Source: a bacterium (GTDB taxonomy: Bacteria; Acidobacteriota; Blastocatellia; HR10). Taken from it: a stretch of 14,609 nucleotides of DNA. The stretch spans positions 1-14,609 of the forward strand of contig JBEPZV010000058.1 of the NCBI GenBank assembly GCA_041640655.1, in the 5' to 3' direction. The position numbers were made by a program, and so were the translations under genes. The notes beneath the pieces are model-generated. The model saw only the letters and a program-made list of their open reading frames with translations, was not told the origin of the DNA and did not search any database. Below, piece by piece: positions 1-14,214 of this stretch. Positions within the stretch are counted from its first letter, which is position 1; every line of letters begins with the position of its first letter.

Positions 1-3000
1 GAGATCGCCGAGACCGTTGAGGTGACCGCCGGAGCCGGCGTGGAGTTGCAGACCGTGGATGCGACGGTCGGAAACGTCCTCAAAGGAGAAACGCTCCTGC
101 GCTTGCCCAACATCAATCGCAGCGCCGTCTCGATCTACCTGCTGCAACCGCTGACGATGCCGTATCGAGGCGTGGGCGTCAATGACAACGTGGGCGGGCA
201 GGTCGCCGGCGCGCGCAGCGATCAGAACACGTTCATCCTCGATGGCGTGGACATCACCGATAACACGGTGGGCACGCACCCGGTGAAACCCTTGAGCAGC
301 GGGCCAGAGCCGATCATCCCCGTCCCGGTCGAGAGCATTGAGGAGTTCCGCGTGGGCACGACCAATCCCAATGCGACGTTCGGCCGCAGCTCGGGTGGGC
401 AGATCGCTTTCGTCACCAAGCGCGGGACGAATGACTTCCACGGCTCGGCCTACTGGTATCATCAGAACGACAACTTGAACGCGAACACGTGGACGCGGAA
501 CCGAACGGGGCAGAAGGATCCCGAGTTGAAGGATAACCGCTTCGGCTTCTCCGCCGGAGGGCCGATTGTGAGGAATCGAACGTTCTTCTTCGCCAACTAC
601 GAAGGGCGGCGATTCCCGCGATCCGAGGACATCGTGCGCGTCGTGCCGACGGAGACCTTGCGTGCCGGGATCCTGCGCTTCCGCGATGCGAGCGGCCAGA
701 TCATCAGCTACGATCTGAAGACCTCGCGATTGTGTGGGCCGGCGAATTCCGATCCCTGCGATCCGCGCGGCATCGGTCTGAATCCGGTGGTCAAGGCGTT
801 GTGGGACCTGCTCCCGCCCGGGAACGATCCCTCCGTGGGCGATGGGTTGAATACGATCGGTTTTCGAGGCGTGGCCGATGCCTCGATCACCAACGACTTC
901 GCCGTCCTGCGCCTGGATCATCACCTGACGGATCGCTGGCGCCTGGAGGCGAGCTATCGGTACTTCCGGCAGATCGCAGCCTCACCGACGCAATTGGATA
1001 TCGGGGGGCTCTTGCAGGGGAACACCAAGGGCGTTCCGGCCTCACTGGCCAAGGTCCCGGTGCAGCCGCGGTTGGTCACGGCTGGACTGATCGGACAGAT
1101 CACCCCGCATGTGACCAACGAGTTCCGTTTCTCCTTCCAGCGCAACTTCTGGTGGCTGCAACGCGTCTCTCCGTTCCCGCAGGTGTCCGGCACAAACGTG
1201 GCGCTTCAGGTCGCCGGTCACCCTGCTTTCGGCGGGTTGGTCTCCGAGCCCATTGATGTGCACACGCAGGTCGCGCGCACGCAAGGGGTCAACGATCACG
1301 TGACGCAGTTTGTGGACAACGTGACCTGGATCAAGGGGCGGCACACGATGCAGATGGGGACTTCGATCCGGCGACTCAAGCTCTATCACCTGCGCGATGA
1401 TAAAGTCGTGGGGTCGCTGGCCGCGCTCGTGGCCGAGCTGGACGTAGCCGGAGCCGTCACGATCCCGCCCGCCCATCGCCCGCCGAGCTGTTCGGAGACG
1501 GTGCGAACAAACTGCCTGCAGCCGGGCGATGTGACCCGGTGGAATCGCCTCTACGCTGGTGCGCTCGGGATCATTGACAACGTCGGCGTCATGATCGTGC
1601 GCGATGGGAGGTTGAATCCGCGCCCGATCGGAACGCCTCTGGAGGTGGATGCCCGCATCAACGCCTATGAGTTTTACTTCAATGACGTCTGGCGCCTTCG
1701 CCCCTCGCTGACGCTCACGCTCGGCGCGAGTTACCAGTGGCAAACGCCACCGGTGGAGAAGGACGGACGACAGACCTTCTTGATCGAGCAAGCGACAGGG
1801 CGAATCCTGACCTCGAGCCAATACTTCGCCGAGCGACGGCAGGCGGCGCTGCGCGGGGAGATCTACAATCCGGCGCTCGCCTTCCAACCCATTCGCAATT
1901 CCGGACGAGATCGCATCTTCGATATTGATCGAACGAACTTCGGCCCACGCGTGGCCGTGGCGTGGAACCCCTCGTTCGAACGCGGCCTCGGGGGAGCCCT
2001 CTTCGGGAATCGCAAGGGGGTGATCCGCGCCGGATACGGGATCGTCTTCGATCGGTTGAACACGGTCCAGACGATCGTCATTCCGCTGCTGGGCGTCGGA
2101 TTCGCCCAGACGATCAACTGTCGGGGCCCGCGGATCGGAGGCATCTGCGCGGGGAACAATGATCCCTCCAACGCCTTCCGCATCGGCGTGGATGGACCGG
2201 CCCCGATCCCCACGATCCCCGCGGTGAGACCACCGGTCGTGCCGAGCATCCCCTTCGGGGAGATCCTCTCCTTCCAAGTTGATCCCGACATCAAGGTCGG
2301 ACGCTCGCACAGCCTCGATCTCACGATCCAGAGAGAGCTGCCCGGCAACTTCCTCGTCGAATTCGGATACGCCGGACGACTGGGACGAAATCTGAACCAG
2401 AACGTGCAGTTGAGCGCCGTGCCATTCTTCATGCGCGATCGTGCGACGCGGCAGACCTTCGCACAAGCCTTCGACGCCGTGGCCGAACAACTGCGGGCGG
2501 GTGTGGCTCCGGATCGCGTGACTCCGCAGCCCTGGTTCGAGAACCTCTTGGGTCCTGGAGGGACGGTCCGCGTCGCGACAGCGCGGACGGCCGCCTTCCG
2601 CGACGGTTTGCTGAACGATCTGTGGACGTTCATCCAAACCTCGCTCCTGGTCGCCGGACAGCCGACGATCACCAATATGCAGGTGCTTGATCTCTGGATG
2701 CGCACCGATGGCGGACGATCGAACTACCACTCGTTCTTCCTCACCGTGCGAAAGGCCTTCTCGCGCAATCTCACCTTTGATGTGAACTACACACTCTCGA
2801 AAGCCCTGGATCAGGCTGGGCTCATTCAAAACTTCATCGGCACGTTCTCCTCATCCTATGACCCCGACATCGACTACGGTCCGGCTTTCTTCGACCGCCG
2901 TCACGTGGTGAATGCGCTGGGATTCTACGAACTCCCCTTCGGGCGGGGGCAACGCTGGGTGACCAACACCTGGTTCGACAAAGTCATCGGTGGATGGCAC

Positions 3001-3519
3001 GTATCCGGGATCTTCACGGCCAATAGCGGACTGCCGCTCACCGTCGTGCAGAGCAATCAGGTCTGGGGCGGTGATCCGCTGAACTTCTCCGTGGGCGCCG
3101 GCGCGATCCCACTTCGTAAGCCCGACTTTCCGAACACCGTGCATAAGGGCGTAGCCGGCTCCGGTGGTGTCGGCACAGCTGGCGATCCCAAGCGGGGTGG
3201 CACGGGCCTGAATCTCTTCGCCAATCCTGAAGCCGTGCTCAACAGCTTCCGAAAGATCCGCATCAGTGAGGATGGACGGCAGGGTCGTGGCGTGCTCCGC
3301 GGCTTGCCCCGATGGAACCTGGACCTCTCCATCGGGAAGAAGACGGCGATCACCGAGAGCGTGCGCCTGGTCTTCACCTGTGACCTGCTGAACGTCTTCA
3401 ACCGCTTGGAGCTGGCCGATCCCACGCTCAGCCTGCTCGACCCGGCCTCGTTCGGTGTCTTGACCACGCAGTTCAATACGCCTCGATTCATTCAGCTCGG
3501 CTTTCGTATCGAGTGGTAG
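1..3519 (+). CDS. TonB-dependent receptor, Oar-like; 5'-truncated by the window edge
   Basis: Frame 1 is open from base 1 (EIAETVEVTAG...), so the GTG at 22 is not the true start. TonB-box-like ETVEVTA; plug motifs GARSDQNTFILDGVD and ESIEEFRV..NATFGRSSGG..VTKRGTNDFHGS; barrel motifs NRFGFSAGGPI and NFGPRVAVAW; C-terminal strand PRFIQLGFRIEW. Confidence 0.93.
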   Translation, partial: EIAETVEVTAGAGVELQTVDATVGNVLKGETLLRLPNINRSAVSIYLLQPLTMPYRGVGVNDNVGGQVAGARSDQNTFILDGVDITDNTVGTHPVKPLSSGPEPIIPVPVESIEEFRVGTTNPNATFGRSSGGQIAFVTKRGTNDFHGSAYWYHQNDNLNANTWTRNRTGQKDPELKDNRFGFSAGGPIVRNRTFFFANYEGRRFPRSEDIVRVVPTETLRAGILRFRDASGQIISYDLKTSRLCGPANSDPCDPRGIGLNPVVKALWDLLPPGNDPSVGDGLNTIGFRGVADASITNDFAVLRLDHHLTDRWRLEASYRYFRQIAASPTQLDIGGLLQGNTKGVPASLAKVPVQPRLVTAGLIGQITPHVTNEFRFSFQRNFWWLQRVSPFPQVSGTNVALQVAGHPAFGGLVSEPIDVHTQVARTQGVNDHVTQFVDNVTWIKGRHTMQMGTSIRRLKLYHLRDDKVVGSLAALVAELDVAGAVTIPPAHRPPSCSETVRTNCLQPGDVTRWNRLYAGALGIIDNVGVMIVRDGRLNPRPIGTPLEVDARINAYEFYFNDVWRLRPSLTLTLGASYQWQTPPVEKDGRQTFLIEQATGRILTSSQYFAERRQAALRGEIYNPALAFQPIRNSGRDRIFDIDRTNFGPRVAVAWNPSFERGLGGALFGNRKGVIRAGYGIVFDRLNTVQTIVIPLLGVGFAQTINCRGPRIGGICAGNNDPSNAFRIGVDGPAPIPTIPAVRPPVVPSIPFGEILSFQVDPDIKVGRSHSLDLTIQRELPGNFLVEFGYAGRLGRNLNQNVQLSAVPFFMRDRATRQTFAQAFDAVAEQLRAGVAPDRVTPQPWFENLLGPGGTVRVATARTAAFRDGLLNDLWTFIQTSLLVAGQPTITNMQVLDLWMRTDGGRSNYHSFFLTVRKAFSRNLTFDVNYTLSKALDQAGLIQNFIGTFSSSYDPDIDYGPAFFDRRHVVNALGFYELPFGRGQRWVTNTWFDKVIGGWHVSGIFTANSGLPLTVVQSNQVWGGDPLNFSVGAGAIPLRKPDFPNTVHKGVAGSGGVGTAGDPKRGGTGLNLFANPEAVLNSFRKIRISEDGRQGRGVLRGLPRWNLDLSIGKKTAITESVRLVFTCDLLNVFNRLELADPTLSLLDPASFGVLTTQFNTPRFIQLGFRIEW

Positions 3520-3526
3520 CGGAACA

Positions 3527-3556
3527 AGGGGCGGAGAGGCGTTTCCTCCCGCCCCT
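3527..3556 (+). terminator. GC-rich hairpin after the receptor gene, possible terminator or 3' stabiliser
   Basis: AGGGGCGG-a-GAGG cgttt CCTC-CCGCCCCT: 12 bp with one bulged A, 7 nt after the stop. No U-tract. Confidence 0.5.
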
Positions 3557-3816
3557 GCCAAAGGGCCGATACCCGGCTGAGGGGAGAACACAGATGTTCG
3601 CCCTTGGGCGTTCACGGTGGGACGAACTTGTAAAAAAGCTGGAAATTCGCAACAATATTGACCCTATGTCATGGCTATTCGGATGGCAAAAGTGGTGCGG
3701 CCCGTCGAGAAAGCGCTGCAGGATCTTCCGAGAAATTCTGAAGGGGCGGGGCGGCCTGAAGGGGAAGCTTTTGAGGCCCAAAATCGTCTTTCGATCGGCT
3801 GAACGATACGACATTG

Positions 3817-3831
3817 TGTCAATTGCTGACA
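3817..3831. promoter_or_regulatory. Candidate upstream activator sequence for a sigma54 enhancer-binding protein
   Basis: Perfect dyad TGTCA-attgc-TGACA, 80-95 bp upstream of the -24 GG. Confidence 0.5.
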
Positions 3832-3870
3832 AAAGCGCAATCCGATCGGGAGGTGAGAGAAGCCTTACGG

Positions 3871-3883
3871 TTTCAATGGATTA
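3871..3883 (+). promoter_or_regulatory. IHF-like binding site
   Basis: TTTCAATGGATTA has one mismatch to WATCARNNNNTTR and lies between the dyad and the sigma54 promoter, the usual IHF position. Confidence 0.4.
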
Positions 3884-3908
3884 GGGCGATCGCGCCGCTC
3901 GCTCTTCT

Positions 3909-3925
3909 CCGGCACGTCGTTTGCA
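3909..3925 (+). promoter_or_regulatory. Sigma54 (RpoN) -24/-12 promoter for the small ORF and glnA
   Basis: CCGGCACGTCGTTTGCA vs consensus YTGGCACGRNNNTTGCW; GG (3911-3912) and GC (3923-3924) are separated by exactly 10 nt; glnA is a classic sigma54 target. Confidence 0.85.
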
Positions 3926-3967
3926 TAACTTGTTCAGGTTGAGCTCTTTCTGGGAGAGGAGCGACCG

Positions 3968-4174
3968 ATGAGAGATGAATATGGGGAGATCATGCGGTTC
4001 CTCCTCCATTTTCGGGAGCGTTTCCCCACGGAGGAGGAGTTCCGGGCATTCTTGGCGGAGGAGGTTCGGCGGTTCGTCAAGGATGTCCGGGACTATGACA
4101 TTGTGATCTCGATCTTACCTGAGTGCCTCAGGCCGAGATCGGTGTTTGTGAGGGAAGGGCATCATCGCTTCTGA
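3968..4174 (+). CDS. Hypothetical small protein (68 aa) upstream of glnA
   Basis: SD GAGGAG at 3956-3961 shortly before the ATG; first ORF after the sigma54 promoter; overlaps no other credible gene; amphipathic-helix pattern (PTEEEFRAFLAEEVRRFVKDV). Confidence 0.65.
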   Translation: MRDEYGEIMRFLLHFRERFPTEEEFRAFLAEEVRRFVKDVRDYDIVISILPECLRPRSVFVREGHHRF

Positions 4175-4264
4175 GGTCTCTCGCTATCAGAGGGGGGCTT
4201 CGGGAGAGCGTCTCGGGTCTTCGGGCGCACGTGTGATATTTTCGATGAGGTGAGGAGGGAGATT

Positions 4265-5650
4265 ATGACGCCACAGAAAGTTCTCGAATATGCGCGCGAG
4301 CATGGGGCGAAGTATGTGGACATTCGCTTCACGGATCTGGTGGGGCAATGGCAGCATATGACGTTCCCGATCGAGCAGTTGAAGGAGGAGAGCTTCGAAG
4401 AGGGCTTCGGCTTCGATGGGTCGAGCATTCGGGGATGGGCGGCGATTCATGAGAGCGACATGTTGCTTGTCCCGGATGCGCGATGGTATTGGATGGATCC
4501 GTTCTACGAGGAGCCGACGCTCTGTTTGATCGGGGATGCCGTGGATCCGATCACGCGGCAGGGGTATGAGTACGATCCGCGGGGAGTCGCCAAGCGGGCG
4601 GAGGCGTACATGCGGTTCACGGGGATTGCGGATGAGGCGTATTTCGGACCGGAGGTGGAATTCTTCATCTTCGATGAGGTGCGATACGAGGTGGACGGTG
4701 TGCGCAGCGGCTATGAGGTGCGAAGCGAGGAGTGGGGCGAGGGCGGTTATCGCATGCGCGGGAAGGAGGGGTATGTGCCGATCCCGCCGGTGGATCGGTT
4801 GCAGGACGTGCGGACGGAGATCGCTGGGCGGCTGCAGCAGATCGGGATCAAGGTGGAGTGTCATCACCATGAGGTGGCCAGTGGGGGGCAGGGCGAAGTG
4901 GACTTCCGCTACGGGGGGCTGGTGGAGACGGCCGATCACGTGATGGCCTTCAAGTACATCGTGCGACAGGTCGCCTGGCGGCGAGGGAAAGTGGCCACGT
5001 TCATGCCGAAGCCGGTGTTCGGGGATAATGGCAGCGGCATGCACTGCCATCAATCGCTGTGGAAGGGCGGGCGTCCGCTCTTCGCTGGCGAGGGCTATGC
5101 GGGACTCTCACAGGAAGCGCTCTGGTACATTGGGGGATTGCTGCGACATGGGCCGGCGTTGGCGGCGTTCGTGGCGCCGACGACCAACAGTTATCGCCGA
5201 TTGGTGCCTGGGTTCGAAGCACCGGTGAACCTCGCCTACTCGCGGCGGAATCGAAGTGCCGCGGTTCGCATCCCTATGTATTCGGCCAATCCCGCGGCGA
5301 AGCGCTTGGAGTTCCGGCCGCCGGATCCGAGCTGCAATCCCTATCTCGCCTTCGCGGCGATGCTGATGGCGGGCTTGGATGGCATTCAGCAGCGGATCGA
5401 GCCGGGCGAACCGCTGGATCGAGACATCTACGACATGAGTCCGGAAGAGTTGAAGGATGTGCCGAAACTCCCGGGTTCGCTCGAGGAGGCTCTGGAAGCG
5501 CTCGAGCGCGATCACGAATTCCTGCTCAAAGGCGATGTCTTCACCCCAGCGCTGATCGAACGGTGGATCCGATACAAGCGCGAGCGCGAAGTGGATGCCG
5601 TGCGCTTGCGCCCGCATCCGATGGAGTTCTACCTCTATCTGGACGTGTGA
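4265..5650 (+). CDS. glnA: Glutamine synthetase type I (GSI-beta-like), 461 aa
   Basis: Motifs [86 protein letters not shown]; adenylylation loop DIYDMSPEE. Start moved to ATG 4265, which follows SD GAGGAGG at 4252-4258. Confidence 0.98.
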
Positions 5651-5687
5651 CCTCGGTGGCCATGGGCGTTCCGGTGGAATGGAGGAT

Positions 5688-5720
5688 CTCCGGCTCGCTC
5701 CGATGAGGGGCGGGCCGGAG
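5688..5720 (+). terminator. 14-bp hairpin downstream of glnA
   Basis: CTCCGGCTCGCTCC gatga GGGGCGGGCCGGAG; the two imperfect pairs are G-U on the + strand, favouring that strand. No U-tract. Confidence 0.6.
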
Positions 5721-5782
5721 CCGCCGGTCGTCCGTGAGTCCTCCTCAGACGAATCTGCAGCGACATCTCCACGGCCCGCTCA

Positions 5783-5811
5783 TTGCTCGCGCTGAAGCGA
5801 GCCGATACAAT
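5783..5811 (+). promoter_or_regulatory. Sigma70-type promoter for panBC
   Basis: TTGCTC (5783-5788), 17-nt spacer, TACAAT (5806-5811), about 33 nt before the panB ATG. Confidence 0.65.
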
Positions 5812-5844
5812 GTATGGTCTGCTCGCGCAGCGAGGGGCACCGTT

Positions 5845-6693
5845 ATGGCGCGCATTACCATTCAGGATCTGAAGGCCATGAAGGGGCGGGGTGAGAAGAT
5901 CGTCATGCTCACCGCCTACGATTACTCCATGGCCCGATTGTTGGACGAGGTGGGGATTCCGGTTCTCCTGGTCGGCGACAGTGTGGGCATGGTGGTGCTC
6001 GGTTACGAGACGACGCTTCCCGTCACGGTGGAGGAGATGCTTCACCACGTGAAGGCGGTCGTGCGCGGCAGCCGCCGCGCTCATGTCGTCGCCGATATGC
6101 CGTTTCTCAGTTACCAAACGGGTCCTGAGGAGGCCGTGCGCCAGGCCGGGCGCTTTCTGAAAGAGGGCGGCGCGCAATCGGTGAAGCTGGAGGGCGGTCG
6201 TGAGATCGTCCCCATCGTCCGTCGTCTCGTGCAGGCGGGCATTCCGGTCATGGGGCATGTGGGGCTCACCCCTCAGGCGATCCATCAGTTGGGCGGCTAT
6301 CGCGTTCAGGGGCGGGACCGCGAGGCGGCGCTTCGGCTCCTTCAGGACGCGATGGCTCTGGAAGAAGCCGGCGCGTATGCGCTCATCTTGGAAGCGATCC
6401 CGGCTCCTCTGGCGCGCGCGATCACCGAGCGGGTGAAGATTCCGACCATCGGCATCGGTGCCGGTCCCTGGTGCGATGGTCAGGTGCAGGTGATTCACGA
6501 CCTCCTCGGCCTCTATCCCGACCTGGCGCCCAAGCATACGAAGCTCTACGCGCGCTTGGGGGAAGCGATTCGTGAGGCGGTCATGGCCTATGTGCGCGAG
6601 GTCCAGGAGGGGGTCTTCCCCGGGCCAGAGCAGAGTCACGCTATGGACGAGACGGTTTTGGCCGAGGTGCTCGCTCTGGCCGATGCCTCGTGA
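5845..6693 (+). CDS. panB: 3-methyl-2-oxobutanoate hydroxymethyltransferase, 282 aa
   Basis: KIVMLTAYDY, LLVGDSVGM, VADMPFLSY, VKLEGG, GIPVMGHVGLTPQ, PTIGIGAG..CDGQV. Start moved from 5734 to ATG 5845 (SD GAGGGG 5832-5837). Confidence 0.97.
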   Translation: MARITIQDLKAMKGRGEKIVMLTAYDYSMARLLDEVGIPVLLVGDSVGMVVLGYETTLPVTVEEMLHHVKAVVRGSRRAHVVADMPFLSYQTGPEEAVRQAGRFLKEGGAQSVKLEGGREIVPIVRRLVQAGIPVMGHVGLTPQAIHQLGGYRVQGRDREAALRLLQDAMALEEAGAYALILEAIPAPLARAITERVKIPTIGIGAGPWCDGQVQVIHDLLGLYPDLAPKHTKLYARLGEAIREAVMAYVREVQEGVFPGPEQSHAMDETVLAEVLALADAS

Positions 6694-6702
6694 GGCGTCG
6701 CC

Positions 6703-7542
6703 ATGCGCGTCGTGCGCACGCTGAGTGAGATGCGGGAGGCGCGAGCCGCGCTGCGCGGCCGCGTGGGATTCGTCCCCACGATGGGATACCTCCACGAAGG
6801 CCATCTCTCATTGATTCGTCGCGCTCGCGCCGAGTGCGAGGCCGTCGTCGTGAGCATCTTCGTCAATCCCACGCAGTTCGGCCCGGGGGAGGATTATGAG
6901 CGTTATCCCCGCGATGAGGCGCGCGATCTCGCTCTGTTGGAGCGGGAGGCCGTAGATGTGGTCTTCGTTCCCACGGTCGAGGAGATGTATCCCCCGGGGT
7001 TCAGCACGTGGGTCGAGGTGACCGGTCCTTTGGCGGAACGGCTGGAAGGGGCGAGTCGTCCGGGGCATTTCCGCGGCGTCGCGACGGTCGTCCTCAAGCT
7101 CTTTCATCTGGTGCAGCCCCATCGCGCGTACTTCGGTGAGAAGGACGCCCAGCAGCTTCGCATCATTCGACGCATGACGACCGATCTCAATCTGCCGATT
7201 GAGATCGTCGCCTGTCCCATCGTGCGCGAACCGGATGGGGTGGCGCTGTCCAGTCGCAATGTCTACCTCTCACCCATGGAGCGGGAGCACGCGCGGGCGC
7301 TCTCGCGCTCGTTGGCCCTGGCGCGTCGTCTCATCCTCGAGGAGGGAGTGCGAGAGGCCGCCGAGGTGCGGCGGCGCCTGCAGGAATATTTGCGCGCGGC
7401 GCCCGGGGTGGCGCTCGACTATGTGAGCTTGGCGCATCCAGAGACGTTGGAAGAGGTGGAACGAATCGAAGGTCCGGTTCTCGTACTCGTCGCCGCGCGA
7501 GTCGGTTCGGCGCGGTTGATTGATAATGCCCTCATTCCGTGA
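6703..7542 (+). CDS. panC: Pantoate-beta-alanine ligase
   Basis: [59 protein letters not shown]; 9 nt after the panB stop with SD GAGG. Confidence 0.97.
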
Positions 7543-7551
7543 AGTGGATGT

Positions 7552-8592
7552 TCACGCGAGCGCGAGCATGCGCGCCAGAGCGCCTCGGGCGCGCTCGGCG
7601 ATCTCCTCCGGGACACGGATCGGATGGACCAGCTCTTTGAGCGCGCGCAGGACCTTGGGCAAGGTCGTGCACTTCATGTATTCGCAGAGCGCATCGTCCG
7701 AGACCGGGTAGAACGTGCGGTCGGGATAGAGCACGCGCAACCGGTAGACCATCCCCTTCTCGGTCGCCACGAGGAAGGTCTTCGCCTTCGAGGTCTCAAT
7801 ATGCCGCACCATGCCTTCGGTCGAGAGGAAGTAGGCATTGCGCGGGAGGTGGCCCGCGACCGCGCGCGCTAGGCAGGTCGTCGCGCAGCCGCATTCGGGG
7901 TGGATCAGGATCTCGGCATCAGGGTGTTCGTCCAGGGCCCGTTCGATCGCCGTCTCCGCGATCTTCGCGTGGACGTGGCATTGGCCGGGCCACAGTGTGA
8001 GGGGACGTCGCGTGAGACCGCTGACGACCGCCCCCAGGTATTTATCCGGCACGAACAGGATCTCCCGATCTTCGGGGATCGCCTCGATGACCTTCTGCGC
8101 GTTGCGCGAGGTGCAACAGTAATCCGAGAGCGCTTTGACGTCGGCCGTGGAGTTCACATAGGTGACGACGACAGCGTGGGGATGGCGCTCTCGCCATGCT
8201 GCCAGTTGCGGAGCCGTCACGCAGGCGGCCAGGGAGCACCCCGCCTCCAGATCGGGCAAGAGCACGAGCTTATCAGGGCAGAGGATCGCCGCCGTCTCGG
8301 CCATGAAATGCACGCCACAGAAGACGATCACACGCGCTTCAGTTTGGGCAGCGTGTTGGCTGAGCCCCAGCGAATCGCCGATGAAGTCGGCGATCTCCTG
8401 AACCTCGGGGAATTGGTAATTGTGGGCGAGGATGACGGCGTGACGCTTCTCCTTCCACTCGAGGATCTCATTGGCCAGTTCGGCCAGTTCCTCGCAGAAG
8501 CTCAGGTTCTCATACCGTCCGGGGTAGAGGTCCGCCGCATAGCGCGTGAACCGTTCGTAGAATGTCCGACCATCGAAGCGCTTCGTCTTCAT
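7552..8592 (-). CDS. nadA: Quinolinate synthase A, [4Fe-4S]
   Basis: VILAHNYQ, GDSLGLS, FCGVHFMAETA, YVNS, HPEC, STEGM; three cluster cysteines in AGCSLA, CHVH and CEYMK; SD GAGGAG upstream of the ATG. Confidence 0.97.
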   Translation of the reverse strand: MKTKRFDGRTFYERFTRYAADLYPGRYENLSFCEELAELANEILEWKEKRHAVILAHNYQFPEVQEIADFIGDSLGLSQHAAQTEARVIVFCGVHFMAETAAILCPDKLVLLPDLEAGCSLAACVTAPQLAAWRERHPHAVVVTYVNSTADVKALSDYCCTSRNAQKVIEAIPEDREILFVPDKYLGAVVSGLTRRPLTLWPGQCHVHAKIAETAIERALDEHPDAEILIHPECGCATTCLARAVAGHLPRNAYFLSTEGMVRHIETSKAKTFLVATEKGMVYRLRVLYPDRTFYPVSDDALCEYMKCTTLPKVLRALKELVHPIRVPEEIAERARGALARMLALA

Positions 8593-8616
8593 CGCGTTGA
8601 CTCCTCAGAGACGAAG

Positions 8617-8625
8617 ATTTTACCA
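8617..8625 (-). promoter_or_regulatory. Extended -10 promoter candidate for nadA
   Basis: Minus strand TGgTAAAAT about 25 nt before the ATG and downstream of the upstream operon's terminator; no good -35. Confidence 0.5.
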
Positions 8626-8676
8626 GACCCGCCTTGCGCTCGCGAGCCGCGGAAGGTGGCCGGCGTGAAGGGAACG

Positions 8677-8713
8677 AAAAGCGTGCGGCGCCCATTGCGC
8701 TGAGCGCCGCACG
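8677..8713 (-). terminator. Intrinsic terminator of the peptidase unit
   Basis: Minus strand CGTGCGGCGCTCA gcgcaa TGGGCGCCGCACG cTTTT: 13 bp with one G-U, followed by a U-rich tail, about 40 nt after the peptidase stop. Confidence 0.8.
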
Positions 8714-8752
8714 AGCTCGGAGGAAGTGCCCGCCTTCGTTGCGACGATACGA

Positions 8753-10867
8753 TCAGCTCTCCGGGATGCGGACGCCGAGTTGCCAGAGGAGGAAGCTCAG
8801 CTCATCGGTCAGATCCTCGATCTGCTTGCTGAGCGGCAATCCTCCCGAGTGACCGGCTTTCGTGTCATACCGAAGGAGGATGGGGCGATCCGACGCCGTC
8901 GCCGCTTGGAGTCGCGCCGCCATCTTCCGCGCATGCAGCGGATCCACGCGCGTATCCGCGTCGCCGGTGATGAAGAGGACGGCCGGATAGCGCGTGCCGG
9001 GTTTCACGCGGTGATACGGAGAGTAGGCGAGCAGGTACTTGAACTGTTCCGGATCGTCCGAGGAGCCGTACTCCGGGATCCAGAAGCGCGCGACCAGGAA
9101 CCGATGGTATCGGATCATATCGAGCAATGGATACGAGCAGACGACGGCGGCGAACAGATCCGGGCGTTGCGTGAGCGCCGCCCCGACGAGCAGTCCGCCG
9201 TTACTGCCCCCGGAGATGGCCAAGCGCGAGGGATTCGTATACCCATTCTTGATGAGCCACTCGGCAGCGGCCAGGAAGTCGTCGAAGACGTTCTGCTTCC
9301 TCTCCAGCATCCCCGCGCGGTGCCACTCTTCGCCGAATTCGCCACCGCCGCGCAAGTTCGGCAGGGCATACACGCCTCCCAGCTCCATCCACAGGACGGC
9401 GCGCGCGGAGAAGCCGGGCAGCATGCTCACGTTGAACCCACCATATCCGGTGAGGAGCGTCGGATTCGAGCCGTCGAGCTTCACTCCGCGCGCATGGGCG
9501 ATGAACATCGGGATGCGCGTTCGGTCGCGCGACTCGTACCAGACCTGTTTGACCTCGAACTGCTCGCTGCGGATCGGCACCTTCAATGCGGCCCACACCT
9601 CTGAGGTCCTCGTGTTCACGTCATAGCGATAGATCGTCGTCGGGATGTGGAAGGAGGAGAACGCGTAGAAGACCTCTGGGCTCTCCCAGCGCCCCCTCAG
9701 GCCGCTGACCGAGCCGATGGCCGGCAACGGGATCTCCTCGAGGAACTTCCCCTGGGGGTCGAACATTCGCACGCGCGCTTGAACGTTCTCCAGGACGTTC
9801 ACCGCGACTCGCCCGCCGACCAGAGCGAAACCAGTGATCACGGCCAAAGAGTGGGGAATGACCTCGCGCCATTGGTCTCGGGCCGTCGCCTTGCGCACAT
9901 CCACGGCGAGGAGGCGGCCTCGCGGGGCATTCCAGTCCGTCAGTAGATAGAGCGTGTCTCCGGCAATTTGTCCGCTGAATCGCGCCTCGATGTCGTTGAC
10001 GACCGGCAGGATGGCGCCATCGCGCGCCACGTCGGAGAGGTAGATCTCCGTTCGTCGGGCGCCGGCGCCGTGCGAGACCGTGAAGAGCGCGTATCGTCCG
10101 TCCTCTGAGAGCGTGACCGTGATGATCTTATCCACGCCATAGCCTCGGCCGAAGATCTCCCGATCGCGCGCCGGGTCATCGCCGCGCCGATGGAAGTAGA
10201 CGCGCGGGCCCTCCGCCGTGTGCCGCGCGTAGTAGAAGCCACTCTTGTCGGAGGTGAACGAGAGGCTGAAATATCGCCCTTTTGGGAGAGCATCGGGGAG
10301 ATCGCGACGAGCTTCGACGTCGAAGAGACGGACGATGATCTCGTCCTCCCCACCCTGACGCACGCCATAGGCGAGCAGGGTCCCATCATCGGAGACGTCC
10401 AACAACGTCACGCTCGTCGTGTGATCCGGGCTCCAGGGATGCGGATCAATCAAAACTTCGTCCGGTCCCTGACGCCCCCTCCGCATGTAGATCACAAATT
10501 GCTCTTGATCCGCGCGCCGCTTGGTGAAGAAATATCGCCCACCGCGTTCGATGGGGAGCCCCACGGCGTCCACTTTCATCAGCTCCGTGAGGCGTCGTCG
10601 AATGCGCTCGCGCCCGGCGACGGCATCGAGCAACGTGCGCGTGTAGGCATTCTGCTCATCAATCCACGCGCGGGTCTTCGGGCTCCATTGGTCTTCGAGC
10701 CAGCGATACGGATCCACGAGCTCGACCCCGTGCAGGACCTCCTTGACGTCCTCCATCGGGGTCTGTGGAGGCTTTCGAGAGAGTTGCGTCCCTCTCCCGA
10801 TCGGGGGAAGGACGCTAAGGAGCAAGAGAAGGATGAGTTCGAGCCATCGAACCCTCACGTTTCGCAT
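8753..10867 (-). CDS. Prolyl oligopeptidase (S9A), exported
   Basis: Signal-peptide-like N-terminus; DPYRWLED; GYGGFN; NLRGGGEFG; catalytic GGSNGG, Asp in ADTRV, His in AGHSGG; SD GGAGGA. Confidence 0.95.
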   Translation of the reverse strand: MRNVRVRWLELILLLLLSVLPPIGRGTQLSRKPPQTPMEDVKEVLHGVELVDPYRWLEDQWSPKTRAWIDEQNAYTRTLLDAVAGRERIRRRLTELMKVDAVGLPIERGGRYFFTKRRADQEQFVIYMRRGRQGPDEVLIDPHPWSPDHTTSVTLLDVSDDGTLLAYGVRQGGEDEIIVRLFDVEARRDLPDALPKGRYFSLSFTSDKSGFYYARHTAEGPRVYFHRRGDDPARDREIFGRGYGVDKIITVTLSEDGRYALFTVSHGAGARRTEIYLSDVARDGAILPVVNDIEARFSGQIAGDTLYLLTDWNAPRGRLLAVDVRKATARDQWREVIPHSLAVITGFALVGGRVAVNVLENVQARVRMFDPQGKFLEEIPLPAIGSVSGLRGRWESPEVFYAFSSFHIPTTIYRYDVNTRTSEVWAALKVPIRSEQFEVKQVWYESRDRTRIPMFIAHARGVKLDGSNPTLLTGYGGFNVSMLPGFSARAVLWMELGGVYALPNLRGGGEFGEEWHRAGMLERKQNVFDDFLAAAEWLIKNGYTNPSRLAISGGSNGGLLVGAALTQRPDLFAAVVCSYPLLDMIRYHRFLVARFWIPEYGSSDDPEQFKYLLAYSPYHRVKPGTRYPAVLFITGDADTRVDPLHARKMAARLQAATASDRPILLRYDTKAGHSGGLPLSKQIEDLTDELSFLLWQLGVRIPES

Positions 10868-10956
10868 CGCGATTCCTCCGTAGACGGCTCTTGGAGAGGC
10901 TCACGTGGCGCCCCGGTCGAAGAGCCGAGTCCCCACGTGAGCCGATGTCGAAAGGT

Positions 10957-13041
10957 TCATCGTCCCGTTCGAGCGCGTCCGGCCTCCTGTCCTGAGCCCT
11001 CGATCGGGACATCTTTATCCTGGCGCTTGTGCTTCTCGAACCACGCGAGCAGGTAGAGTTGCTGCGCCAACTGGTGCGACGGGCGGCGCCAGCCATGATA
11101 CTCCTCGGGCATGCGGATGAGGAGCGTCTCCTTCTTGAGCATCTTCAGCGCGCGGTAGAACTCCTCGCTCTGCCCGATGGGCGTGCGCAGGTCCGCTTCA
11201 CCGGTCATGATCATCGTCGGCGTCTTCACGTTGGCGACATAGTGCAGCGGGGATCGGAGGGCGTACTCCATCGGGTCCTCCCATGGGAACTTCCGGAACT
11301 GGGAGTACCAATTCGGGCCGTCGGTGGTGCCCACGAACGAATGCCAGTTGATGACCGGGCGCATGGAGACGGCCGCTGCGAAGCGATCCGTGTGACCGAC
11401 GATCCAGGCCGTGAGGACACCGCCACCGCTGCCGCCGCAGACGAAGAGGTTGCGCTCATCAATCCAGCCTTTGGCGAGCGCTGCGTCCACGCCCGCCATC
11501 AGGTCATCGTAATCCTTGCCCGGGTATGCGTATTGGATGCCATTGACGAAGTCTTGACCGTAACCCGTGCTCCCTCGCGGATTCGTGTAGAGCACGGCAT
11601 AGCCATTAGCCGCGAAATTCTGGAAGGCCCAATTGAAGCCGACGTTGTACATCGCCCACGGCCCTCCATGAATCCAGAGCACCATGGGGTATTTCTTGGT
11701 CGGGTCGAATTCGGCGGGTTTGATCAGCCAGCCTTGAATCTTCCATCCGTCCGTCGAGGTGAACCACAACTCCTCAACGTCGCCGAGCTTCACCCCCGCC
11801 AGCACGTCTTCGTTGACGTCCACGAGCTTCCGGATGTTCGCCGGATCGCGGAGATTGAAGGTGACGAGCACCCCTGGTTCCTTGAACGTCGAGCGCACGG
11901 TGGCCACCTGTCCGTTCTTGGCCAGGGAGAAGCCCGAGAGGACATGCGTGCCCTCCAGGACCTTGCGCACTTTTCCATCGAGCGAGGCGAAGTAGACGCC
12001 CGTCGTCCCTTTCTCTCCCACGAGGAAGTAGATGCCCGAGCCATCGGGCGCCCAGGTCACGTTGGTCGGTGAGCTGGGGAGGTTCTCGGCGAGGACGCGC
12101 TTGTTGCCCCCATCTTTGTCCATCAGATAGAGGCTCGAAATGTGGAAGGTGTACCCTTTCTCGTCGTAGCCCGTGTAGGCGATCCACCGTCCGTCGGGAG
12201 AGACTGTCGGATTCGTATCCGGGCCGCGTCGGTCGGTGAGGGGACGGATGTCGAGCGTCTGAAGGTCAACGGCATAGATCTCAGTGTCTCCTCGCAGATA
12301 CTCCCAATCGGGCTTGCGAATCGCCGAGACGTAGATCGTCCGACCATCGGCCGACCACTCGGGATCCGTGTGGTTGTACTTGCCGCTGGTGATCTGACGA
12401 GGGGTGCCGCCGAGCGTCGCGTCAACGACGAAGACTTGTGTGTAGCCGCGTGGGAGCAGGCCCTGGCCGTCACGCGCCCAGGTGAGCCGATCCACGACGA
12501 TGGCCGGTCGCGCCCATTGTGCCCCGGCCGGTCGCTCGGGCAGCTTGATCGGCAGGATGGGATCATTGTCGGGGACGAGCATGGTGAAGGCCAGGTACTT
12601 TCCATCGGGCGACCACCGCAGATCGCTCGGAGCCCGCTCCAGACGGGTCAGTTGGGCGACCTCGCGCGTGTCCACCCACATCACGTGGATCTGCGTCGTG
12701 CCATCTCGGTTCGAGAGGAAGGCGACGCGCTTCCCATCCGGGGACCAGACTGGCGAGCTGTCGCGCCAATTCCCCGAGGTCAACTCGCGCACGCGCGTCC
12801 CCGCGACGTCAACGATCCAGAGATTACTGTTGTACTCATCCCGCATCTTGTTGACCCACGTGCGGGTGAAGATGATCTGCTGGCCGTCGGGGGAGATGGC
12901 GGGATTCCCGACGGATTCCATCTCCATGAAGGTCTCCTTGTCCAGCAGCTTGACCTTCTGTTGACCGAGTACTGGGGCGATGGCGCTCATCAGCCCCAGC
13001 ATGAGCGTGAGGACGACGATTCGGCGAAAGGTGTGTGTCAT
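10957..13041 (-). CDS. S9 peptidase (acylaminoacyl/dipeptidyl peptidase-like, PD40 beta-propeller), exported, 694 aa
   Basis: Start moved to MTHTFRR (ATG 13041, SD GGAGGAG); hydrophobic signal peptide; repeated SPDG blades; IHGGP, NPRGSTGYG, nucleophile GGSGGG, Asp in EADLRT, His in EYHG. Confidence 0.93.
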   Translation of the reverse strand: MTHTFRRIVVLTLMLGLMSAIAPVLGQQKVKLLDKETFMEMESVGNPAISPDGQQIIFTRTWVNKMRDEYNSNLWIVDVAGTRVRELTSGNWRDSSPVWSPDGKRVAFLSNRDGTTQIHVMWVDTREVAQLTRLERAPSDLRWSPDGKYLAFTMLVPDNDPILPIKLPERPAGAQWARPAIVVDRLTWARDGQGLLPRGYTQVFVVDATLGGTPRQITSGKYNHTDPEWSADGRTIYVSAIRKPDWEYLRGDTEIYAVDLQTLDIRPLTDRRGPDTNPTVSPDGRWIAYTGYDEKGYTFHISSLYLMDKDGGNKRVLAENLPSSPTNVTWAPDGSGIYFLVGEKGTTGVYFASLDGKVRKVLEGTHVLSGFSLAKNGQVATVRSTFKEPGVLVTFNLRDPANIRKLVDVNEDVLAGVKLGDVEELWFTSTDGWKIQGWLIKPAEFDPTKKYPMVLWIHGGPWAMYNVGFNWAFQNFAANGYAVLYTNPRGSTGYGQDFVNGIQYAYPGKDYDDLMAGVDAALAKGWIDERNLFVCGGSGGGVLTAWIVGHTDRFAAAVSMRPVINWHSFVGTTDGPNWYSQFRKFPWEDPMEYALRSPLHYVANVKTPTMIMTGEADLRTPIGQSEEFYRALKMLKKETLLIRMPEEYHGWRRPSHQLAQQLYLLAWFEKHKRQDKDVPIEGSGQEAGRARTGR

Positions 13042-13119
13042 AAGCCTCTCCTCCAAAGCCTGGGCTGGACAGGTCCTGCGCATCGGGACTACGACCGAAG
13101 CCTCTGCTCCGGTTTCAGG

Positions 13120-14214
13120 TCAACGCACGCGGCCTCGGGCTGCGACGCGCCAGACCGCTTCCACCTGATCCCCGCGAATCCCATACACCTCATCGTGCAG
13201 GTTCATGACGGTGCAGACGTGGTTGGGGATGATCCTCAGCCGCTCCCCCACGCGATAGCGGCGCGAGGAGCGCGAGATGTCCAAGTGTCCGTGCTCCTCC
13301 GAGAGCGCCTCCACCTCGGCTTCCGGGTCCTCGCACACGAGACCGAAGCCGCGGCCGTCGCCGGCGCGGTACCGGTCTGTGGAGAAGGTCTTCGAGCCGC
13401 CATCCACGATAGCGCGGCCGGAGACGGAGGTGCTGACGACCGTCACCAGGATCGAGAGCGCGCAATCCTCGGGGCGGGCCACACCGAGGCCGACTATCGT
13501 GCGGTCATTGAAGATGTACATCCCGGGGCGAATCTCCGTCACGCCGAGGAATTCATGGGAGATGAAGGCCGTCGGCGTTGATCCCCCGCTCACGACGCCA
13601 ATTGAGAGGCCCGCGCGTTCGAAGGCGTCGTAAAAGCGTCGAAGGCGCGTGTTGGCGTCTTCAAGAAGCTGACGCCGTTCGGGTTCGGGAGCCATGAAGT
13701 GTCCGGGGTAGAACATCACACCGCGGAAGTCCACGTTCGGCAGCTCGTGAATGAGGCGGGCCAGAGCGACCGCCTCATCCGGCCGTTGCACACCGCAGCG
13801 ACGGAAGCCGATGTCCAACTCCACCAAAAGACCGATGCGCACGCCGCGCTCCTGCGCGCTGCGGGAGATGTCGCGCACGGCTTCTTCGGAATCCAGAGCG
13901 ACCATGAGCGACGCCCGTTCGGCCAGAGCCGCCAAGCGCGCTGCTTTCTCCCGCCCCAGGATGGGATAGGCGATCAAGACATCGGTGAGTCCCGCTTGGA
14001 TCATCACCTCGGCCTCGCCCAGCTTGGCGACGGTGATGCCCGAGGCGCCGCTGGCCATCTGCCGATGCGCCAATTCCGGGATCTTATGCGTCTTCGTGTG
14101 TGGGCGCAGCGCGAGCCCGTGCCGTCGGCAATATTCGGCCATGCGGGCGAGATTGCGTTCCATGACGTCCAGGTCAATGAGGACGGCGGGCGTCTCCAGC
14201 TCATGCACGCGCAT
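13120..14214 (-). CDS. DSD1-family fold-type III PLP enzyme (D-serine / D-threo-3-hydroxyaspartate dehydratase-like)
   Basis: LETPAVLID, PLP lysine in RPHTKTHK, RCGV, SGGSTPT, EIRPGMYIFND, DGGSKTFS, LSEEHG, metal motif PNHVC; purine-rich SD. Confidence 0.9.
   Translation of the reverse strand: MRVHELETPAVLIDLDVMERNLARMAEYCRRHGLALRPHTKTHKIPELAHRQMASGASGITVAKLGEAEVMIQAGLTDVLIAYPILGREKAARLAALAERASLMVALDSEEAVRDISRSAQERGVRIGLLVELDIGFRRCGVQRPDEAVALARLIHELPNVDFRGVMFYPGHFMAPEPERRQLLEDANTRLRRFYDAFERAGLSIGVVSGGSTPTAFISHEFLGVTEIRPGMYIFNDRTIVGLGVARPEDCALSILVTVVSTSVSGRAIVDGGSKTFSTDRYRAGDGRGFGLVCEDPEAEVEALSEEHGHLDISRSSRRYRVGERLRIIPNHVCTVMNLHDEVYGIRGDQVEAVWRVAARGRVR

Follow-up and report, generated by a model that had tools for sequence, protein, structure and literature searches.

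The PII proteins (GlnB and GlnK; PF00543) are trimers of ~112-aa subunits with a T-loop, and their genes classically lie in one of two slots, before glnA or after amtB. GlnE, an adenylyltransferase, normally takes PII as its input. The cyanobacterial gif genes are encoded separately and are induced under nitrogen excess. Among sigma-54 systems, the pairs PspA-PspF and HrpV-HrpS share a different design, in which a protein encoded by an activator-dependent operon beside the activator gene binds back to that activator. To our knowledge, nitrogen control in the Acidobacteriota is almost unstudied.

Here, we describe a small ORF (sORF) that precedes glnA in a 14,609-nt stretch of DNA from a Blastocatellia bacterium (the whole stretch is referred to below as the window). 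Like a PII gene, it lies before glnA, and in three relatives after amtB, and appears to be part of a nitrogen regulon; unlike PII, its 68-aa product is modelled as a helical hairpin, has no PF00543 match and occurs alongside PII in 23 of the 27 carriers. Elsewhere, small proteins such as PipX, IF7/IF17 and sP26 have proved to be key lineage-specific regulators. The last of these, sP26 of Methanosarcina mazei, is reported in a preprint to interact with glutamine synthetase (GS) and to enhance its activity; it differs from the sORF product in being archaeal and only 23 aa long, and the sORF is also linked to genes for glutamate synthase (GOGAT), AmtB and a NifA-type activator. IF7 and IF17 (gifA/gifB) of cyanobacteria are GS-inactivating factors, small and specific to their lineage, that are reported to control the enzyme by binding it directly (PMC6212724); the sORF, unlike the genes for these inhibitors, lies under an activator-dependent promoter together with glnA, and its product has no significant profile match among PDB chains. 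PipX, also cyanobacterial, is reported to be a coactivator of NtcA and a partner of PII, a small adaptor restricted to its lineage and connected with the master transcription factor of nitrogen control (PMC10609283, PMC11850224). This is the logic that we favor for the sORF, but NtcA is a CRP-type protein whereas the partner proposed here is a sigma-54 AAA+ activator, and the sORF model is all-helical and has no match among solved chains. The sORF resembles pspA and hrpV in its place in an activator-dependent operon next to the activator gene; it differs in having no homology to them and in being much smaller, and for the sORF product, contact with the activator is proposed by analogy. Judged by its sequence and context, the sORF family appears to join the small lineage-specific proteins in nitrogen control.

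The small gene, its promoter and its product

A previous reading of this DNA, made from the sequence alone, had placed the sORF as the first cistron behind a sigma-54 promoter, and our results bear this out. The pattern YGGYAY-N5-YTGC had a single match on both strands of the 14.6-kb window (0.38 expected by chance), 58 nt 5' of the sORF ATG (Table 1), and the −24 GG and −12 TTGC were invariant in seven of seven aligned orthologous upstream regions. With −24/−12 elements at 10-nt spacing that are both close to the gene and conserved, the sORF has the sequence features of a sigma-54-dependent gene. The strong Shine-Dalgarno sequence and the 90-nt distance to glnA that the sequence-only reading had reported were both confirmed, the distance being exactly 90 nt with glnA starting at ATG 4265; the glnA frame is open from GTG 4250, and the ATG is the likely start. 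The glnA product scored as a type I GS with both Pfam (Gln-synt_C, 1.5e-132) and NCBIfam (TIGR00653, 637.5 bits against a cutoff of 429), and glnA was the sole GS gene found in the window's genome. Furthermore, the claim that no clear terminator separates the two genes held up, in that a simple scan of positions 3500 to 5900 gave no terminator-like site (mean of 1.6 in shuffled sequence). An Rfam search of positions 3400 to 4400 returned nothing at an E value of ≤1. We infer that the sORF is cotranscribed with glnA and that it is translated; among 23 listed sequencing runs, no RNA run covered the locus.

A perfect inverted repeat, ~87 nt 5' of the −24 element, is a candidate enhancer. Its left half (TTGTGCCA-like) was the best-conserved block in the alignment of the seven upstream regions, and the closest relative has TGCCA-N5-TGGCA, with both arms changed and the symmetry kept. 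No palindrome was common to all of the promoter sets (ACAA-N2-TTGT was present in 6 of 19 regions and TGT-N9/10-ACA in 3 of 24), and the enhancer assignment is tentative for this reason. Between an outer-membrane barrel gene and the promoter lies a 123-codon open frame; this frame has no Pfam match, its 3' part (from position 3660) is poorly conserved among close relatives, and it is probably not a gene.

Table 1. Coordinates of the features discussed (window positions unless a contig or locus is named)
Feature	Position	Strand	Basis or remark
Small ORF (sORF), 68 aa, ATG start	3968-4174	+	ORF list and translation
Shine-Dalgarno region of sORF, GGGAGAGGAG	3952-3961	+	Ends 6 nt 5' of ATG; contains GAGGAG
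Sigma-54 (−24/−12) type promoter, CGGCACGTCGTTTGC, CGGCAC-N5-TTTGC	3910-3924	+	GG at 3911-3912, GC at 3923-3924
sORF-glnA spacer, 90 nt	4175-4264	+	Carries glnA Shine-Dalgarno sequence GAGGAGGG at 4252-4259
glnA, type I GS, 461 aa from ATG 4265	4265-5650	+	Pfam and NCBIfam
Perfect inverted repeat TGTCA-N5-TGACA, candidate enhancer (activator-binding) site	3817-3831	.	Scan
sORF copy 2, 67 aa	G000 (window's genome) C16:14431-14634 = locus L021 4931-5134	-	Behind TGGCAC-N5-TTGC
Activator of the window's genome	G000 C10:59808-61346 = locus L047 1486-3024		NifA-scoring; contig separate from window
Large outer-membrane barrel gene	22-3519
123-codon open frame	3513-3884	+	No Pfam match
panB, panC	5734-7542	+	3' of glnA; housekeeping
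nadA, two S9-type peptidases, D-serine dehydratase-like gene	7552-14214	-
Iso_dh, aconitase-type large and small subunits, sORF	L081 1637-5204		Metagenome contig
Second sigma-54 type motif, diverging from sORF copy 2-gltB	L022 5649; L023 5654; L085 5741	+

The sequence-only reading had left conservation of the ORF as a point on which it could fail. We found 34 sORF matches in 27 of 61 related genomes, and all 34 were open frames without stops. When the seven orthologues within the window's genus were compared, the 722 nucleotide differences were distributed over codon positions 1, 2 and 3 as 125, 121 and 476, and 394 codon changes were synonymous versus 194 that were nonsynonymous. The 33 distinct ORFs extracted from the loci were 62 to 77 aa long, 31 of them with an ATG start, and most were preceded, within 20 nt, by a GGAG-type sequence. 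On this comparative evidence, the sORF is a real, conserved protein-coding gene.

The product had been called unassigned, and the family databases agreed. Pfam gave no match for the window protein (E value of ≤0.1) or for any of 38 family members (E value of ≤0.01), NCBIfam gave only subthreshold noise (best score of 15.5 bits against a cutoff of 151), the sORF profile had nothing significant among PDB chain sequences (best E value of 0.22), Foldseek of the model against the PDB returned nothing at an E value of ≤0.001, and the ESM Atlas yielded no usable match. A wide VIA-align search reached a Z score of 4.1 at best, below 5, and listed generic helical hairpins. A full-text literature search found nothing on the family. 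By these sequence comparisons, the sORF is the founder of a previously undescribed small-protein family, outside the described Pfam and NCBIfam families. Its conserved core reads YGELMxxLLxxRxRFxTEEEFRAFxxxxVRxFxxDLRDFxIEISxxP. The AF2 model (mean pLDDT of 80.2, pTM of 0.58) predicts a hairpin of helices 7 to 13 and 22 to 41 followed by an extended segment at residues 44 to 50, with the tail disordered from residue 60 onward. The protein showed no functional motif, and the conserved polar residues R16, D39 and R41 formed no clear single patch. Fused or longer forms gave no Rosetta stone clue: one 182-aa protein carries the sORF domain at its N terminus and no known domain otherwise, and P0024 and P0027 look like overlong start calls. 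One subgroup of the family ends in [LI]x[IV]GCE-COOH (the f8 loci L027, L028, L032, L034, L035 and L036), as do P0020, P0028, P0030, P0035, P0036, P0039 and P0043; the window protein does not.

Distribution and gene neighborhoods

Relatives of the sORF are few. There were 36 representatives at an E value of ≤1e-3 among 1.84 billion proteins and nine 90%-identity clusters in a set of 5.8 billion, and the homologue records were named as Blastocatellia or Acidobacteriota bins. Among the 61 related genomes, carriers belonged to families f1 (7 of 7), f2 (3 of 3), f6 (10 of 12) and f8 (6 of 11), and the sORF was not found in the other six sampled families; in a phylum-wide sample, 4 of 401 genomes carried it, all within the same four families. 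The sORF protein tree agrees with the taxonomy, which argues for vertical inheritance while the neighbors of the gene were changing. The family thus appears to be confined to four families of Blastocatellia, to have been vertically inherited and to have been under purifying selection since their common ancestor, and this narrow taxonomic range limits its reach. A second copy (copy 2), ~62% identical to the first, was present in all seven genomes of the window's genus. Because the copy 2 clade (support of 100/99) is nested within that genus, the duplication arose at the genus level.

We determined gene neighborhoods by Pfam scans of flanking ORFs plus tblastn. The related genomes are not independent of each other, and the contexts collapse to about seven architectures. 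In all seven genomes of the window's genus, a sigma-54 motif precedes copy 1 and then glnA, and copy 2 has its own sigma-54 motif and is followed by gltB, the gene for the large subunit of glutamate synthase. The TGA stop codon of copy 2 overlaps the gltB ATG in the TGATG manner in the window's genome, and in five further genomes, G002 excluded, the gap between copy 2 and gltB does not exceed ~40 nt. The order in the sister genus is activator, sORF, glnA and gltB, and that in family f2 (three genomes) is activator, glnA, sORF and gltB, with the activator of G011 on another contig. The order in the 10 carriers of family f6 is activator, GS type III and sORF; all 10 loci have TGGCAAG-N4-TTGCW in the interval from the activator to the GS III gene and no such motif in the interval from the GS III gene to the sORF. 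Two arrangements were found in family f8, namely, activator, amtB and sORF (G020, G024 and G036), with a sigma-54 motif 5' of amtB in two of the three, and activator followed by the sORF alone (three genomes), with the motif directly before the sORF in all three. The f8 GS genes were on contigs other than that of the sORF in the four genomes checked, out of six carriers. Metagenome contigs showed such patterns again, namely, activator-sORF (L079 and L083) and activator-sORF-glnA (L074 to L076). The sigma-54 patterns used had no match at the expected position in L032, L043 or L046, and L045 has no DNA upstream of its truncated glnA.

A GS gene, type I or III, was directly adjacent in 21 of the 34 genomic copies and gltB was adjacent in 10, with 3 copies flanking both. 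The link to nitrogen genes that had been predicted was therefore found, as a gene for GS, GOGAT, AmtB or the activator next to the sORF. The narrower claim of a link to glnA stands as to adjacency and fails as to specificity for GS, since gltB, amtB and activator-alone contexts exist.

Only one context, on metagenome contig L081, has no nitrogen-assimilation or activator gene within 5 kb; there, the sORF follows Iso_dh and genes for the large and small subunits of an aconitase-type enzyme.

A NifA-type activator as the constant partner

The constant partner of the sORF is the gene for a GAF-AAA+-HTH, NifA-type sigma-54 activator. The protein scored as NifA with TIGR01817 (544.7 bits against a cutoff of 528.85), and its orthologues matched GAF_2, Sigma54_activat and AAA_lid_14 in Pfam. 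When orthology was defined by a GAF domain E value of <1e-40, 38 of the 61 genomes had the activator, i.e., all 27 sORF carriers versus 11 of 34 noncarriers. It lay upstream of the sORF, on the same strand and within 10 kb, in 25 of the 27 carriers, and the other two were contig breaks. In close relatives of the window's genome, the activator is ~9.5 kb upstream, beyond a peptidase gene and a barrel gene matching the one in the window; it is directly adjacent in one species of the genus and on three metagenome contigs. An insertion of ~8 kb in the genus, carrying the barrel gene and the PD40/DPPIV-type peptidase gene, parts the activator from sORF-glnA. In the window's genome (G000), copy 2 and the activator do not share a contig, and in G006, more than 100 kb lies between them.

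Across the class, the neighbors of the activator are ammonium assimilation genes, and in genomes without the sORF, it lies beside GS I, GS III or an amtB/PII/glnA cluster. A hidden Markov model search of six-frame segments next to the activator revealed no hidden sORF in the 11 genomes that have the activator but lack the sORF (best E value of 0.18). The activator module thus persists without the sORF, with none hidden, and we regard the sORF as an optional but sticky accessory of the activator-plus-assimilation module.

Sigma-54 motifs stood directly upstream of the sORF in 7 of 7 copy 1 loci, 7 of 7 copy 2 loci and 3 of 3 activator-sORF loci, and the sORF very probably belongs to a sigma-54/NifA-type nitrogen assimilation regulon. 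As to what it does there, the reading that we favor, still tentatively, is that its product is a nitrogen-induced modulator of a shared control layer, e.g., by feedback on the activator. In such a scheme, the NifA-type activator would drive ammonium assimilation (GS I, GS III, AmtB and GOGAT), presumably when triggered by nitrogen limitation, and the sORF protein would be made whenever the activator fires. The protein, predicted to be a cytoplasmic polypeptide of ~65 to 75 aa with a helical hairpin and a short strand, would contact the shared control layer rather than serve as a subunit of one enzyme, and in the form that we prefer, it would be a partner, through feedback or as an adaptor, for the activator or the activator's signal input. 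The sORF stays in the operon neighboring the activator while the enzyme gene swaps or vanishes, which is why action on the control layer seems the most likely. A feedback partner would be expected in a position like that of the sORF, which is encoded in what looks like the activator's target operon, with a sigma-54 motif between the two where examined. The binding partner is suggested by this gene context.

Several points weigh against the control layer reading. Regulators often adjoin their targets, so the linkage may mark the sORF as a mere target of the activator and not as its partner. The abutment of copy 2 on gltB and the position of most copies beside GS or GOGAT genes are the pattern expected of an enzyme accessory. 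Furthermore, the activator occurs without the sORF in 11 genomes, copy 2 is separated from the activator in G000 and G006, the motif was missing from its expected position in L032, L043 and L046, and the contexts amount to about seven nonindependent architectures. A predicted complex between the activator (512 aa) and the sORF protein scored 0.00 and 0.00, which is evidence neither way.

A bolder form of the idea, doubtful but conceivable, is that one-component NifA-type sigma-54 activators have, in the sORF family, a small partner of a new class, which the activator would induce and which would bind back to it or relay nitrogen status to it. Such a relay may act in place of or beside PII, and in some genomes, in which no PII was found and the sORF occupies the slot after amtB, its product may be the main signal protein. 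If this were true, nitrogen control in Blastocatellia would run through a loop that differs from both NtrBC/PII and NtcA/PipX. The sORF is in any case a testable candidate, with the activator, GS, GOGAT, PII and AmtB as possible partners, and it illustrates that "hypothetical" small ORFs in operon leaders can be core members of a regulon.

Other explanations for the sORF

The explanation that survives best after the control layer reading, although we consider it rather unlikely, is action at the level of the enzymes, with the sORF protein binding GS and its paralogue binding GOGAT as an activator, stabilizer or assembly or coupling factor of the GS-GOGAT cycle that would be coproduced with the enzyme when nitrogen is limiting. 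It would account for the GS or GOGAT gene that directly borders 31 of the 34 genomic copies, for the possession by each half of its own copy after the glnA-gltB cluster had split in the window's genus, and for the overlap of the copy 2 stop codon with the gltB start codon in the window's genome, and there is precedent elsewhere in the small GS-binding proteins sP26 and IF7/IF17. However, the adjacent GS genes are of two types whose products are ~25 to 34% identical over part of the catalytic domain, so that one common binding surface is unlikely. Six f8 genomes, moreover, have the sORF after amtB or alone, on contigs that carry no GS gene in all four of those checked, one contig has it after an Iso_dh/aconitase-type operon, and GlnE, GlnD and PII are already present for the control of GS. 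The sequence-only reading had proposed a modulator or stabilizer of GS; the nitrogen gene linkage on which it drew is real, but a dedicated GS partner does not fit the GOGAT, AmtB and activator-only contexts and, because the sORF is unlinked to any GS gene in family f8, is unsupported. An IF7-like inhibitor is improbable, since glnA and the sORF have one activator-dependent promoter in common, and if the sORF product does act on GS, a positive role like that of sP26 fits better by analogy.

We regard as improbable a place for the sORF product in the PII pathway, as an adaptor or as a stand-in for GlnK toward AmtB, GlnE or the activator. The sORF does occur in both classical PII slots, before glnA in the window and after amtB in the three f8 genomes with that arrangement. 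A PII gene lay within ~600 bp of amtB in 28 of 41 amtB-containing genomes (coordinates compared by eye), and the three amtB-sORF genomes were all among the 13 with no PII gene near amtB; two of them, G024 and G036, had no PII gene that we could find anywhere. These are few and related genomes, and the occupation of the PII slot after amtB is a hint only. Against a role in this pathway, the sORF product has no sequence or fold likeness to PII. The absence of PII features reported by the sequence-only reading was borne out, as the 68-aa protein and the 38 family members had no PF00543 match and no other Pfam family, and the window's genome has three true PII genes elsewhere (one beside amtB, near GlnD), in addition to GlnE and GlnD. 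Nor are the distributions complementary, with PII present in 23 of 27 sORF carriers versus 19 of 34 noncarriers, which argues against general mutual replacement, and we rejected the sORF as a general PII replacement on this ground. In three near-complete sORF genomes (G008, G024 and G036, the last two ~100% complete), PII was not found and GlnE was present. The retention of the sORF in these genomes implies that PII is not an obligate partner.

It also seems quite unlikely that the sORF is a coexpressed passenger, either a protective or chaperone-like protein or an ORF kept because its translation aids expression of the operon. The lack of a functional motif and of a clear single patch formed by R16, D39 and R41 would suit such a role, as would the loss of the sORF from 2 of 12 f6 and 5 of 11 f8 genomes in which the activator-GS module stayed. 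A passenger would not be expected to show the apparent purifying selection since the ancestor of the four families, or retention through at least six rearrangements, always in nitrogen loci, and the sORF opens some operons and closes others, a misfit with a pure leader role.

Finally, the idea that the sORF makes no protein and is instead an RNA leader acting in cis or an ORF that arose by chance, suggested by its location in the 5' leader of glnA, is close to refuted by the sequence comparisons, i.e., by the third-position bias and the ~2:1 synonymous excess, by protein-level matches down to 36 to 45% identity with every frame open, by the empty Rfam search and by the position of the sORF 3' of the enzyme gene in other lineages.

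Downstream of glnA in the window are ordinary housekeeping genes, first panB and panC, with no terminator-like site found between glnA and panB, and then, on the opposite strand, nadA, two S9-type peptidase genes and a D-serine dehydratase-like gene (Table 1). At the copy 2 locus of three genomes of the window's genus (L022, L023 and L085), a second sigma-54 type motif diverges from the copy 2-gltB operon. In L022, the divergent motif is directed toward amtB, and in L023, toward a BBP2-type porin gene; the corresponding spot in the window's genome (L021) holds a truncated BBP2-type ORF and no motif on that strand. These observations suggest that the region beside copy 2 and gltB is a small divergent nitrogen-scavenging island.
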